The notes beneath the pieces are model-generated. The model ran no database searches. It worked only from the letters and a program-made list of their open reading frames with translations, and was not told the DNA's origin. The translations under genes and the position numbers were made by a program. This document shows, one piece after another, positions 51,143 through 57,949 of a DNA stretch of 64,000 nt. Source of the stretch: Candidatus Bathyarchaeota archaeon (lineage in GTDB: Archaea > Thermoproteota > Bathyarchaeia > Bathyarchaeales > Bathycorpusculaceae); contig JAGTQG010000002.1 in NCBI GenBank assembly GCA_018396875.1, positions 3,638-67,637 on the forward strand, given 5' to 3'. The number at the start of each line of letters is the position of its first letter. The stretch's first letter is position 1.

Positions 51143-51694
51143 CTATTCCACGACGTATCTGTAGGCTATGTGTTCGCCCGCTGTGGGGCTTTTTCGGATT
51201 ATGCGTATTATGTCGCCGGGTTTTGCGCCTATGGCTTTGGCTGCTGGGTCTGAAGCCTTTATTTGTGGAAGCTGGTATGGCTTAACCCGGTATTGGGCTA
51301 GGACTTTTTCGCGTTCTTCTGGAGTTAATATTTCATGTTTTGGCACAAGCACGTGTTCAAATATGTCGAAGACTGGGAAAGTTTTTGGCAATAGTTCTAT
51401 GTGTTTTTTCTTTGCTGTTTGTTTTGCAGCGTTGGTGTAGCGTCCGCTTGCTATAAGGATTCCATGTTCTATTTGGGCTTCTTTCATGGCTTTTGCCATG
51501 CGGTTTACGGTTTGTATGCCGACGGTTTCGTCTGGAACACACCATATTAAGATTTGTTTTTTCTCTCCATTTTTTAGTTCTTCGACGGTGTAGCTTGCCA
51601 CGTTTTTGGTTTTCTCTTTTTTGGCAAGTTTGTAGCCTCTAAGTCTGATTAGAATTTTCGCCTTACGCTCTTCTAGGGTTTCTTCCTCGCTCAA
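51143..51694 (-). CDS. rpoH: DNA-directed RNA polymerase subunit Rpo5/RpoH with an unusual ~100-aa N-terminal extension (Rpb5 N-domain / Mrr-like)
   Basis: The C-terminal 75 aa are [69 protein letters not shown], which is canonical RpoH. The ORF opens at TTG 51694 directly after an in-frame TAA, with GAGG 8 nt upstream. The first in-frame ATG is codon 66. Confidence 0.8.
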
Positions 51695-51824
51695 ACTTTA
51701 AACCTCTTAATTGAGCTGAAGCATTCGAACTCTAGCCTAGTGAAAGCCTTAAACTTTACGCTTGCCAAAGCTTAAAATCTGGAACGGAATAATCTAACTG
51801 TTCTGACGGAAAGTGGTGTGTGGA

Positions 51825-54675: not shown

Positions 54676-55365
54676 TTATACGCGAAGAACAACGTTCCCC
54701 ACGTATTTTCTCAGCATTTCAGCGAATCCGGCAAGCACATCCGGCGGGTATGGTTGTAGGTTTTTGTATTCTTCGCTTAACGTGTCGCCTGGTATGAACT
54801 GTTGTAAGGCGTAGTTTTTGGCGCCTTTGGCTATTTCGCCCATGCGGGTTATGTCTGCCTCCTCAACGATTTTTGGCACAACAGTGGTTCTGAACTCGTA
54901 TTCAACTTTTCCAGCTTTCAGCAGCTCAATGGTTTTTAGAAGCGCGCTTGTTTCCTCCGTTCCCAAAAGGTGGTATTTTTCCGGCGAGGTTTTGAGGTCT
55001 AAAGCCACATAATCCAAGTAGGGAAGGCATTCTTCCAGCACTGTTGGGTTTAAGCCGTTCGTGTCCAGCTTAACAGCGAAACCGCGCTCCTTAAGCCTTC
55101 TTAAGAAGCGGGGCAGCTCTTTGTGGATGGTTGGCTCGCCGCCTGTCACGACAACGGCGTCCACATATTTCTTGCGTTCATCCAAGATTTGGAGGGCTGC
55201 TTCCTCGTTAAGGAAGGGTGGCTGTGGGTTGACTACTATACGCCAGTTATAGCAGTATGGGCAACGCAAATTGCAGCCCGGCGTGAACAAAACCGCTGCC
55301 ACTCGATCCGGATAGTCTATTAGGCTTGTTTTTTGCAGCCCACTGAACTTCATTTGGGCGGTCAC
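54676..55365 (-). CDS. nrdG: anaerobic ribonucleoside-triphosphate reductase activating protein (radical SAM)
   Basis: GCNLRCPYCYN CxxxCxxC motif, VVTGGEP. ATGA-type 4-nt overlap with nrdD. Confidence 0.85.
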   Translation of the reverse strand: MTAQMKFSGLQKTSLIDYPDRVAAVLFTPGCNLRCPYCYNWRIVVNPQPPFLNEEAALQILDERKKYVDAVVVTGGEPTIHKELPRFLRRLKERGFAVKLDTNGLNPTVLEECLPYLDYVALDLKTSPEKYHLLGTEETSALLKTIELLKAGKVEYEFRTTVVPKIVEEADITRMGEIAKGAKNYALQQFIPGDTLSEEYKNLQPYPPDVLAGFAEMLRKYVGNVVLRV

Positions 55366-57485
55366 CGGGCTGCCACGGCTTGAGGCGTAATAACAGCTTT
55401 TTCAAATGTTCTGCGTATGGCGAATTCAGCTTGTTTCCCGTCGTTCCACTGGTCTACTGGGCGGAGGTAGCCCACAACCCTCGAGTAAACTTCGCAGCGG
55501 GCTCCACACTTGGGGCATTGCTTGTGTTCTCCACTCATGTAGCCATGGGTTGGGCAGACGCTAAAGGTCGGCGTCAACGAGAAGTAGGGTATGCGGAAGT
55601 TCCATGTTACTTTGCGGATGAGTTCCGCCGCTGACTTCCAAGAGTGTAGGCGTTCGCCCAGATATATGTGAAAGACTGTTCCACCCGTGTAAAGGGGTTG
55701 AAGCTTATCCTGGTGTTCTAAAGCCTCAAAGAGATCTGCATCGTGGTCCACGGGTAGTTGTGAAGAGTTTGTGTAGAATGGTTCAGCGCCCTTAGCTAAA
55801 TACTTCTCATTCGCCACAATTATGTCTGGATATTTGCGCTTATCTATGCGGGCTAGACGGTAGCTGGCACCTTCAGCTGGGGTTGCCTCCAAATTGTAGA
55901 TGTTGCCCGTTTCCTCTTGAAAGTCGGCGAGTTTCTCCCTCATGAAGTTTAAAACTTTCACGGCGAATTCGAGGCCTTCTGGCGTGGCTATGCTGTAGCC
56001 GAAAAGGTTTAGAATAGCTTCATTCATGCCCACTAAGCCTATGGTTGAGAAGTGGTTTTTCCAGTATTTTCCAAAGGTTTCTTTCACGCCCCGGAGATAC
56101 CGCTTCGAGTACGGGTATAGGCCTTTCTCCGTGAACTGTTCCAAGACTTTGCGTTTTATTTCTAGGCTGTCCTTTGCGAGTTCCATGAGCGCCTCTAACC
56201 GTTCGAAGAATTCGTCTTCGTCTTTGGCTAGGTAGCCGATTCTTGGAAGGTTTAGGGTTACAACGCCAATGCTGCCTGTCAGCGGGTTAGCGCCAAAAAA
56301 GCCTCCGCCGCGTTTGCGGAGTTCCCTGTTGTCTATTCTTAGGCGGCAGCACATGCTGCGGACATCTTCGGGTTTCATGTCGCTGTTAACAAAATTCGAG
56401 AAGTAAGGCGCTCCATATTTCGCGGCTACTTCGAAGATTTTCTGGGAAACAGGCGAATCCCAGTCGAAATCCTTAGTTATGCAGTAAGTTGGAATTGGGA
56501 AGGTGAAAACTCTTCCTTTGGCGTCGCCTTTGCTGAGGACTTCTGCAAAAGCAAGGTTAAACATTTCCATCTCTTTTTCCATGTCGCCGTAAGTGGCGTC
56601 CATGACTTTCCCGCCAATTATGACGGGTTCGTCTTTCATGAACTCTGGCACTTCCAAGTCTAGAGTCACATTTGTGAAGGGTGTCTGAAAGCCCACACGG
56701 GTCGGCACATTCATGTTGAAGAAGAACTCTTGAAGGGATTGCTCCACCTCTTTCTGGCTTAAACCATCATAGCGAATGAAAGGCGCAAGGTAAGTGTCAA
56801 AGTTTGAAAAGGCTTGAGCGCCAGCCGCCTCGCCCTGCAACGTGTAGAAGAAGTTTACCACTTGACCTAGGGCTGTTCTAAAATGTTTAGCTGGAGTGCT
56901 TTCAATTTTGCCCGGCACGCCTCCGAAACCGGTTAACAGCAAGTCTTTTATGTCCCAGCCCACGCAGTACGGTCCAAGTACGCCTAAGTCGTGGATGTGA
57001 AAGTCGCCTGAAAAGTGGGCTTCAGCCACGTTGGGCGGGTATATGCGGCTTATCCAGTATTTGGCGATAACCGTAGACGACAAATAGTTGTTTAAGCCCT
57101 GCAACGAATAGCTCATGTTAGAGTTTTCTTTAACCCGCCAGTCCTCCATCTCCAAATACTGATCCACAAGGTCTGCTTGGCTTAGGAGGGCGGCTAATTC
57201 CCGTATGTCTTGGTGCTGTTTACGATATAGAATGTAGGCTTTGGCGGTTCTCGCGTGACCGTTCTCTATCAAAACCTTTTCCACAACGTCTTGGATTTCC
57301 TCAACTGTGGGGACGCCGTCCTCGCCGAACCGCTTCTTGAGTTCAGCAACCACCTGGTCGCTTAGTTTTTTGGCTAGTTCGCGGTCTTTTCCACCAACCG
57401 CCTTGGCAGCCTTCCAAATAGCATTTGTTATTCGTTCTTGGTCGAAGGGTTCGAGTCTTCCATCACGCTTTCTAACAAACTTCAA
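55362..57485 (-). CDS. nrdD: anaerobic (class III) ribonucleoside-triphosphate reductase
   Basis: N-terminal ATP-cone (VRKRDGRLEPFDQERI), C-terminal zinc ribbon CPTHG...CPKCG and glycyl-radical motif SRVVGYLRPV. The TTG start overlaps the nrdR stop (TTGA). Confidence 0.95.
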   Translation of the reverse strand: MKFVRKRDGRLEPFDQERITNAIWKAAKAVGGKDRELAKKLSDQVVAELKKRFGEDGVPTVEEIQDVVEKVLIENGHARTAKAYILYRKQHQDIRELAALLSQADLVDQYLEMEDWRVKENSNMSYSLQGLNNYLSSTVIAKYWISRIYPPNVAEAHFSGDFHIHDLGVLGPYCVGWDIKDLLLTGFGGVPGKIESTPAKHFRTALGQVVNFFYTLQGEAAGAQAFSNFDTYLAPFIRYDGLSQKEVEQSLQEFFFNMNVPTRVGFQTPFTNVTLDLEVPEFMKDEPVIIGGKVMDATYGDMEKEMEMFNLAFAEVLSKGDAKGRVFTFPIPTYCITKDFDWDSPVSQKIFEVAAKYGAPYFSNFVNSDMKPEDVRSMCCRLRIDNRELRKRGGGFFGANPLTGSIGVVTLNLPRIGYLAKDEDEFFERLEALMELAKDSLEIKRKVLEQFTEKGLYPYSKRYLRGVKETFGKYWKNHFSTIGLVGMNEAILNLFGYSIATPEGLEFAVKVLNFMREKLADFQEETGNIYNLEATPAEGASYRLARIDKRKYPDIIVANEKYLAKGAEPFYTNSSQLPVDHDADLFEALEHQDKLQPLYTGGTVFHIYLGERLHSWKSAAELIRKVTWNFRIPYFSLTPTFSVCPTHGYMSGEHKQCPKCGARCEVYSRVVGYLRPVDQWNDGKQAEFAIRRTFEKAVITPQAVAAR

Positions 57486-57949
57486 GTTTTATTCACCTCT
57501 TGGAGCACGCGACGGAAGTCTTCTGGCTCCTCAAATCTGCGGTATACGGAGGCGAAGCGCACATAGGCTACACGGTCAAGGTTTTTAAGGTGTTTCATGA
57601 CTAAGTCGCCGATTTCTTGGGAGGACACTTCTTCCTTGCCAAGCTGCATGAGTTCCTGTCTAACCCTCTCCGCTAGGGAGCGAATCTGCTCCATGGTTAC
57701 TGGCCGTTTTTCGCAGGCCTTCTGTAAACCTCTAATGATTTTGTTTAGGTCGAAGCGTTCAAGTCTGCCGTCGCGTTTCCGCACCATCAGCTCGATGGTT
57801 TCTATATACTCATATGTGGTGAAGCGTCTCCCACAGTTGCCGCATTCCTTGCGTCTTCTTATGGTGTTGTCTGCGGAATCGCGGGTTTCAAGGGTTTTAA
57901 TGTTTTCTGAGCCGCAGTATGGACATTTCATGGAGCCTTTACATCCCAT
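57482..57949 (-). CDS. nrdR: transcriptional repressor NrdR
   Basis: MKCPYCGS ... CGNCGRRFTTYE zinc ribbon plus ATP-cone (VRKRDGRLERFD). The start is ATG 57949 or ATG 57931 (MKCPYCG). Confidence 0.9.
   Translation of the reverse strand: MGCKGSMKCPYCGSENIKTLETRDSADNTIRRRKECGNCGRRFTTYEYIETIELMVRKRDGRLERFDLNKIIRGLQKACEKRPVTMEQIRSLAERVRQELMQLGKEEVSSQEIGDLVMKHLKNLDRVAYVRFASVYRRFEEPEDFRRVLQEVNKT

Follow-up and report, generated by a model that had tools for sequence, protein, structure and literature searches.

Whether the jaw domain of the RNA polymerase (RNAP) subunit Rpb5 is confined to eukaryotes is the question raised by a gene in a 64,000-nucleotide stretch of DNA (the window) from a Candidatus Bathyarchaeota archaeon (assembly GCA_018396875.1, contig JAGTQG010000002.1). 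Archaeal RpoH (Rpo5) has been described as lacking the N-terminal domain of Rpb5, which is regarded as confined to eukaryotes (PMC6690254, PMC3906176, PMC3424549), and Rpb5_N is entered as restricted to eukaryotes in a survey of PD-(D/E)XK proteins (PMC3424549). Long forms of Rpo6, but not of Rpo5, are treated in a 2026 survey of the small subunits of archaeal RNAP (PMC13257274). The gene in the window encodes a single, constrained protein of 183 amino acids (aa) that consists of two domains, the first of which is homologous to Rpb5_N and the second of which is a canonical RpoH. The gene and its domains are located as follows:

51143..51694, minus strand: complete coding sequence of the long RpoH/Rpo5, 183 aa (TTG start 51692-51694, TAG stop 51143-51145)
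51380..51694, minus strand: N-terminal domain (N-domain), residues 1-105, inactivated Mrr-type PD-(D/E)XK fold, homologue of Rpb5_N
51146..51370, minus strand: C-terminal domain (C-domain), residues 109-183, canonical RpoH/Rpb5_C (PF01191, NF007129, Foldseek; ratio of nonsynonymous to synonymous substitution rates, dN/dS, 0.035)

The 183-codon minus-strand open reading frame and the RpoH module in its last 75 or so aa had been claimed in a sequence-only reading of the window, and both are borne out. The C-terminal 75 aa match PF01191 (Rpb5_C) over positions 1-73 of the 73 in the profile (E = 1.8e-32, 111.3 bits, cut-off 23.5), and the NCBIfam RpoH equivalog NF007129 is also matched (E = 6e-34, 115.6 bits, cut-off 83). 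These 75 aa match canonical archaeal RpoH/Rpo5 (75-90 aa; PDB 4qiw_H, 8cro_H, 7ok0_H, 2waq_H) over its full length, to which the window protein adds an N-domain of 105 aa. In Foldseek alignments, the C-domain is 62-65% identical to the Rpo5 chains of Thermococcus, Pyrococcus and Sulfolobus acidocaldarius and 56-57% identical to that of Saccharolobus, whereas the whole chain is 24-35% identical to eukaryotic Rpb5. The C-domain is the most constrained part of the protein, since the median dN/dS over 230 gene pairs is 0.035 for this domain and 0.10 for the N-domain. It probably docks on the largest RNAP subunit.

The N-domain is basic (isoelectric point 9.65), and its elements are arranged in the order alpha1 (with an RGY motif), beta1-3, alpha2, beta4, alpha3 and beta5. 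An AlphaFold2 (AF2) model of this domain alone has the order H-E-E-E-H-E-H-E, a predicted local distance difference test score (pLDDT) of 92.5 and a predicted template modelling score (pTM) of 0.85; the pLDDT of the whole-protein model is 84.5. The best Pfam match of the N-terminal part is the inactive restriction endonuclease family NA-iREase1 (PF22722; E = 5e-10), and Mrr_cat (PF04471) is also matched (E = 1.7e-9; 36.6 bits for the full protein and 38.2 bits for the N-terminal part alone, cut-off 21). A restriction-endonuclease fold is known for Rpb5_N (PMC3424549).

The alignment with Rpb5 that had been drawn by eye in the sequence-only reading is real. In phmmer searches, residues 34-182 form one unbroken alignment with residues 53-205 of Arabidopsis NRPB5A (E = 6e-27), which contains one 4-residue gap, and residues 45-181 and 52-180 align to human and yeast Rpb5, respectively. 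Searches of the PDB were carried out with N-only profiles, which exclude all C-domain residues. The single N-domain sequence gave marginal Rpb5 matches (E = 0.14-1). With a profile of Bathyarchaeia N-domains the seven best matches are eukaryotic Rpb5 (E = 3.9e-5 to 2.8e-3), and with a profile of 26 divergent archaeal N-domains the eleven best are Rpb5 (E = 1.9e-8 to 3.3e-4), all non-Rpb5 chains having an E of at least 0.012. No chain of a Mrr-type nuclease in the PDB was matched at E <= 10 by the archaeal N-domain profiles. An hhalign comparison of archaeal N-domains (26 sequences) with eukaryotic Rpb5 N-domains (27 sequences) gave a probability of 98.6% (E = 7e-16, 101 columns) and paired residues 4-105 of the window protein with residues 9-133 of human Rpb5; controls with a reversed sequence and an unrelated profile gave probabilities of 0.2-0.4%. 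A hidden Markov model (HMM) built from eukaryotic N-domains alone detected the window N-domain (E = 5e-14) and 120/120 close relatives; with this model the best reversed decoy had an E of 0.48 and short RpoH sequences gave no match. The N-terminal part is thus homologous to the Rpb5 jaw domain, as had been proposed.

As judged from these alignments, the N-domain, hinge and C-domain are collinear with those of eukaryotic Rpb5 (RPABC1/ABC27), which has the same two-domain order, a C-domain that is also PF01191 and an N-domain that is likewise a PD-(D/E)XK fold without catalytic residues. Common to both proteins are an N-terminal RGY helix and a beta-'VG'-helix-beta-'T..AK'-beta core, and the hinge before 'H.LVP.H' is nearly equal in length. 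The window protein is approximately 25 residues shorter than Rpb5, being without the eukaryotic insertion of approximately 20 aa between the first strands. It keeps a clear similarity to Mrr_cat, whereas eukaryotic Rpb5 has almost lost such similarity, and its host is, unlike that of Rpb5, an archaeon with a single RNAP.

A structural comparison with Rpb5, which had also been suggested, points the same way. When the whole model was compared with the PDB by Foldseek, eukaryotic Rpb5 chains occupied ranks 1-33 (E of approximately 1e-15, up to approximately 200 aligned columns), whereas short archaeal Rpo5 chains covered the C-domain only and MspJI had rank 50. The model of the N-domain alone matches both Rpb5_N and Mrr-type nucleases. 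Its template modelling score (TM) with Rpb5 is 0.53-0.66, with a root mean square deviation of 2.1-2.5 Å over 70-80 core residues in many entries.

Among Bathyarchaeia, the long form is the RpoH type that prevails, and it is carried by complete chromosomes such as OY970072.1, OY969706.1 and CP070714.1. Searching 5.8 billion proteins yielded at least 1500 homologous clusters, and the best 120 of these matches are all 176-201 aa long, 67-96% identical and aligned from the first residues. Relatives occur in at least 96 species-representative genomes, all but one of which are labelled Bathyarchaeia or synonyms. The best 80 loci from these genomes (L001-L080; 58-94% identical to the query) were compared. 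All relatives examined have kept the extension, on which purifying selection acts. In 80/80 loci the long form stands alone, and no second RpoH module is present at any of them. A HMMER search of 1.84 billion representatives identified dozens of more divergent clusters at 50% identity (176-195 aa, 35-49% identical, whole query aligned), followed in the ranking by eukaryotic Rpb5, aligned from approximately residue 40, and by short RpoHs. The divergent clusters that bear names are Bathyarchaeia, and all divergent forms whose genome context was examined stand alone. P0124 and P0130, considered as Thaumarchaeota, were rejected as such because their cluster names are Bathyarchaeia.

A long form of 248 aa was found at locus L083 after a gene cluster encoding proteasome-alpha, SBDS, Rrp4, Rrp41 and Rrp42. 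This contig also encodes a presenilin homologue and a Rab-like GTPase (L083:4485-5066), the best solved relative of which is 'Thorarchaeota Rab' (E = 5e-38). By its gene content the contig is probably Asgard.

Several variants of the long form have been observed. P0160 (436 aa), P0161 (481 aa), P0246 (378 aa), P0164 and P0170 contain two to three tandem Mrr-like/NA-iREase N-domains and one RpoH C-domain; P0160 has two Mrr_cat stretches (E = 1e-12), and three stretches of P0161 match the query. P0135 (L087:8424-9143) and P0144 (L083:10001-10747) carry an extra, strongly acidic tail of 50-60 aa after the RpoH domain. Two loci, L078 (CAWIYU010000013.1) and L079 (CAWIYU010000008.1), both 63% identical to the query, are located on different contigs of one metagenome-assembled genome (MAG), which may reflect duplication, strain heterogeneity or a binning artefact. 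L064 (DATGZD010000158.1), WP_455282280.1 and P0432 are archaeal rpoH or rpoB sequences in assemblies with bacterial labels ('Candidatus Sulfotelmatobacter sp.', '[Eubacterium] cellulosolvens') and are likely to be contamination or misbinning of Bathyarchaeia.

Canonical archaeal rpoH is the first gene of the rpoH-rpoB-rpoA operon, whereas the long form stands alone and has a conserved TTG or GTG start. The sequence-only reading had placed the gene outside this operon context, and no rpoB, rpoA or second RpoH module is present within the 64-kb window. In a small group of Bathyarchaeia, comprising approximately 22 clusters at 90% identity (P0281-related), many members of which are from rumen or gut, a genuine short rpoH of 84 aa was identified within the operon rpoH-rpoB-rpoA(fused)-L30e-NusA. 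The RpoB of this group was used as the query to fetch 80 rpoB loci from metagenomes. Where RpoB is 71-100% identical to the query, a short rpoH is located 23-66 nt upstream of rpoB (46/46 loci), whereas an RpoH module is absent from 34/34 loci of the tier at 63-64% identity, in which unrelated genes of NadA and NikR type lie upstream instead. The nearest named RpoBs of this second tier are from Bathyarchaeota/Bathyarchaeia (61-89%), those of Nitrososphaerota being at 54-58%. Three further assemblies from NCBI/ENA, all outside the 80 long-form loci, include two with no rpoH upstream of rpoB (L178 and L180) and one with a short rpoH (L179); L180 belongs to a hot-spring MAG series common to many long-form loci. 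A short rpoH is also located upstream of rpoB in L090-L093.

The mainstream Bathyarchaeia rpoB-rpoA operons are therefore without the usual upstream rpoH, and a minority lineage keeps the short gene. The long form is likely to be the only RpoH in mainstream Bathyarchaeia, since the two distributions are complementary and an RpoH must be encoded somewhere.

The rpoB gene of Bathyarchaeia is unsplit (approximately 1100-1130 aa) and rpoA is fused (approximately 1274-1285 aa), followed by L30e and NusA (L090-L093, L143-L180). Many Bathyarchaeia rpoB fragments are named 'subunit B'', partial' by NCBI, and rpoB is split by frameshifts in long-read MAGs (L178, L179). P0140 was rejected as an authentic short Bathyarchaeota RpoH because it is a truncated annotation. 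P0374 and P0377 were rejected as short forms of Bathyarchaeia; their split rpoB is euryarchaeal, and they are uninformative.

The gene is read here as encoding the Rpo5/H subunit of the RNAP of this bathyarchaeon in a full-length, Rpb5-like form, with a probability of roughly 0.75. Its product is predicted to be a physical RNAP subunit because of the identity of the C-domain to solved Rpo5 chains and the lack of rpoH in the mainstream operons. The C-domain would attach the subunit to Rpo1 at the lower jaw, the arrangement found in all archaeal and eukaryotic polymerases with a solved structure. The N-domain, which is basic, would project beside the downstream DNA channel and, by analogy with Rpb5_N in Pol I, II and III, would form the lower jaw next to downstream DNA, where it may contact or guide the duplex or present a surface to which factors dock, but would not cut DNA. 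The long form would replace the short rpoH that is normally encoded at the head of the rpoH-rpoB-rpoA operon.

Rpb5 is a subunit common to Pol I, II and III and to the polymerases of nucleocytoplasmic large DNA viruses. Yeast rpb5 mutants are not complemented by a Pyrococcus H chimera (PMC3906176). If the reading given above is correct, its two-domain architecture would predate eukaryotes, a dead restriction-endonuclease domain having been recruited to RpoH, and the eukaryotic jaw would appear to descend from this archaeal architecture. The wider proposal has about an even chance of being right: that the jaw-bearing, two-domain Rpb5 is an archaeal invention inherited by eukaryotes, formed when an inactivated Mrr-type endonuclease was recruited before eukaryogenesis; that it survives as the sole RpoH of most Bathyarchaeia, occurs also in other lineages, Asgard among them, and has been hidden by annotation; and that the short, operon-linked rpoH is one of two states. 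The long form is a variant of a subunit already known and not a system of a new kind, and it contradicts a textbook-level statement. The eukaryote-only view has shaped ideas on how the jaw, and the interactions it has with TFIIB, TFIIF, RSC and viral HBx, originated. With the long form prevalent in a major archaeal class and probably present in Asgard, the origin of the jaw would move into Archaea, the archaeal N-domain links Rpb5_N to Mrr nucleases as a sequence intermediate, and the basic function of the jaw becomes testable in a simpler system with a single polymerase. A lineage-specific archaeal element that adjoins Rpo5 and contacts downstream DNA has been described as Rpo13 (PMC13257274, PMC3479171). 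On the basis of the literature alone, Rpo13 of Sulfolobales has a spatial role like that suggested for the N-domain, whereas it is an unrelated small helical protein encoded by its own separate gene.

Several points weigh against the full-length, Rpb5-like reading of the gene. Membership of the long form in the RNAP is drawn from sequence comparison and operon context, the Asgard contig is placed by gene content only, and the orientation of the two domains in the full AF2 model is not confident (pTM 0.57). Two Pfam families had been named in the sequence-only reading for the N-terminal part; Mrr_cat was found, whereas PF03871 (RNA_pol_Rpb5_N) did not match the window protein at the gathering threshold. 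This miss was set aside as evidence against homology because the PF03871 model spans residues 4-94 of human Rpb5 only, without half of the shared beta-alpha-beta core. Pfam also assigns 25 of the 26 divergent archaeal N-domains to Mrr_cat and one to Rpb5_N (E = 7e-4, below the cut-off). Mrr_cat, NA-iREase1, MspJI, AspBHI and AF1548 have the same fold as the N-domain, with profile matches at E = 1e-9 to 1e-10 and Foldseek TM values of 0.54-0.64. Foldseek with the N-domain alone ranks MspJI first (E = 5e-5) and also finds Rpb5, AspBHI and AF1548; by its predicted fold, the N-domain is as close to these three nucleases as to Rpb5.

Such Pfam and Foldseek results would be expected if a dead Mrr-type domain had joined RpoH in two separate events, one in archaea and one in the eukaryotic stem; the resemblance to Rpb5_N would then stem from a shared ancestry in Mrr nucleases and not from inheritance of a two-domain subunit. 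The variants that carry two to three N-domains in tandem show mobility of the module in the gene family, which is in keeping with separate fusions. This course of events is nevertheless considered unlikely. Rpb5_N and Mrr nucleases are discriminated by sequence profiles and not by fold, and the archaeal N-domain profiles are nearer to Rpb5 (E = 2e-8) than to any solved Mrr-type nuclease (E > 10). The archaeal protein and Rpb5 have in common their domain order, the RGY helix, a lost (D/E)xK strand and the length of the hinge. Weak matches to Mrr_cat and NA-iREase1 remain in true Rpb5 proteins, and one archaeal form weakly matches Rpb5_N, which suggests a continuum from Mrr nucleases through the archaeal N-domain to Rpb5_N, in which the archaeal domain has the appearance of an intermediate.

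The long form might instead be an extra Rpb5-like protein beside an ordinary short RpoH, acting as an alternative or regulatory subunit (cf. plant NRPB5/NRPE5 and trypanosome RPB5/RPB5z) or outside the RNAP. A short rpoH is indeed present in the canonical operon of some Bathyarchaeia, no long form lies within an rpoB operon, two long copies are present in one MAG (L078, L079), and a 2026 paper cites a Bathyarchaeota Rpo5 accession that is two numbers from that of Rpo1 (PMC13257274). Furthermore, the complementarity between the long and short forms holds between sets of contigs, so that the long form can be called only probably the sole RpoH where it is present. A paralogue of this kind is nonetheless rather improbable, as the two arrangements segregate by RpoB tier (rpoH upstream at 71-100% identity, none at 63-64%) and the short rpoB-linked, P0281-related forms comprise approximately 22 clusters against at least 1500 of the long form. 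At least four 'short' Bathyarchaeia RpoH entries of NCBI are truncated long genes or cluster at 90% identity with forms of 182-189 aa, and constraint is stronger on the C-domain than on the N-domain.

The significant Mrr_cat matches also admit a working Mrr-type endonuclease tethered to the RNAP, for example for defence or transcription-coupled cleavage. Within the first half of the domain, several divergent archaeal forms retain the motif '(Y/W)ID', at what we take to be the expected position of the Mrr catalytic Asp. An active nuclease is, however, very improbable. The sequence-only reading had held that the nuclease (D/E)xK position is lost, and the alignment is consistent with this: the (D/E)xK strand of the window family is ILIWCVP, in which W51 is nearly invariant and C52 invariant, and no acidic/Lys pair is conserved. 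The equivalent strand of human Rpb5 is MFVFFPE, and divergent archaeal forms have xRx or hydrophobic residues at this strand. These catalytic positions were assigned by alignment and model, not by active-site superposition. The best-matching Pfam family, NA-iREase1, is defined as inactive, and the N-domain differs from Mrr-type nucleases in lacking the (D/E)xK motif and in being fused to a housekeeping RNAP subunit and kept across an archaeal class.

The gene model was examined in the window and in the relatives. The TTG at 51692-51694 is the first possible start, since an in-frame TAA lies two codons upstream. This TAA had been described as immediately preceding the TTG; it is present at 51698-51700, but one codon (AGT) intervenes. 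The ribosome-binding motif reported ahead of the start was located:

51703..51706, minus strand: Shine-Dalgarno-like GAGG, 8 nt 5' of the TTG start

A Shine-Dalgarno-like motif is present at -4 to -14 in 74/81 family genes. The first in-frame ATG is codon 66, so that 65 codons stay open before it as had been counted, and the alternative GTG at codon 32 is present in the sequence. The starts of the relatives align at one position in 80/80 loci (TTG in 67, GTG in 13, ATG in none). Translation beginning near codon 100 had been raised as the outcome that would overturn the reading. No start codon is conserved at codons 88-117 of the family genes, where any one codon is a possible start in at most 21% of genes, and a short product of internal initiation is thus not a conserved feature. 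The idea that only the last 80 or so codons are translated behind a fortuitously open leader, which could appeal to the TTG start and to NCBI records in which the C-domain alone is annotated, such as MCW3980768.1 (80 aa) and OGD57471.1 (81 aa), is effectively refuted by the purifying selection on the N-domain (dN/dS 0.10 over the 230 pairs), by the frame, length and start position kept in 80/80 loci with Shine-Dalgarno and promoter motifs preceding the N-domain, by the lack of a conserved internal start, by the confident AF2 model of the N-domain and by the complete N-domain found in frame 5' of the annotated 80-aa gene at L082.

Truncated annotation has been common in this family. Several Bathyarchaeia RpoH entries of NCBI annotate only the last 72-91 aa, from an internal ATG, the genuine start being a TTG or GTG. 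MCW3980768.1 has a full N-domain in frame upstream with a GTG start (L082:389-943, JAOZGZ010000092.1). At 90% identity, OGD57471.1 and MGD0805021.1 (81 aa each) cluster with forms of 182 aa, and MFQ6074875.1 (91 aa) clusters with forms of 189-191 aa; MCX6655802.1 is a further truncated entry. Comparisons of RNAP subunits between species are affected by this systematic error. One family member is labelled 'RPABC1' by the pipeline of the Joint Genome Institute, and public databases already display the Pfam architecture. Full-text literature searches, in which subscription journals are poorly covered, brought up no description of a long RpoH from archaea, so a prior mention is possible.

The gene is monocistronic and is preceded by a conserved element that resembles a TFB recognition element (BRE) and TATA box:

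51747..51762, minus strand: conserved upstream element AGCGTAAAGTTTAAGG, BRE/TATA-like, 63 nt 5' of the start codon, putative promoter
within 51747..51762, minus strand: short form of the element motif, AAAGTTTAAGG

Its core, AAAGTTTA[AT][AG]G, is located 58-68 nt 5' of the start in 70/79 loci and is usually preceded by AGCG. The core is specific to long rpoH, since 70 of its 83 occurrences in 2.5 Mb sit at that gene. The specificity of the element AGCGYAAAGTTTAARGG far exceeds that of a generic TATA box, and a regulatory site is possibly included; it probably acts as the promoter. A scan for sigma-70 promoters and intrinsic terminators gave no matches, both models being inapplicable to archaea.

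The neighbours of the gene are those named in the sequence-only reading. A small helix-turn-helix regulator is convergent with the long rpoH across a gap of 30 nt, and TldD/PmbA is divergent across a gap of 118 nt. ARAGORN detected zero tRNA genes across window positions 1-64000. NrdG and NrdD are located further upstream; NrdD (approximately 710 aa) and its radical S-adenosylmethionine activase occupy 54679-57488 on the minus strand, the same strand as the long rpoH. The two genes lie approximately 1-6 kb upstream of the long rpoH in most of L001-L080, and this synteny is conserved.

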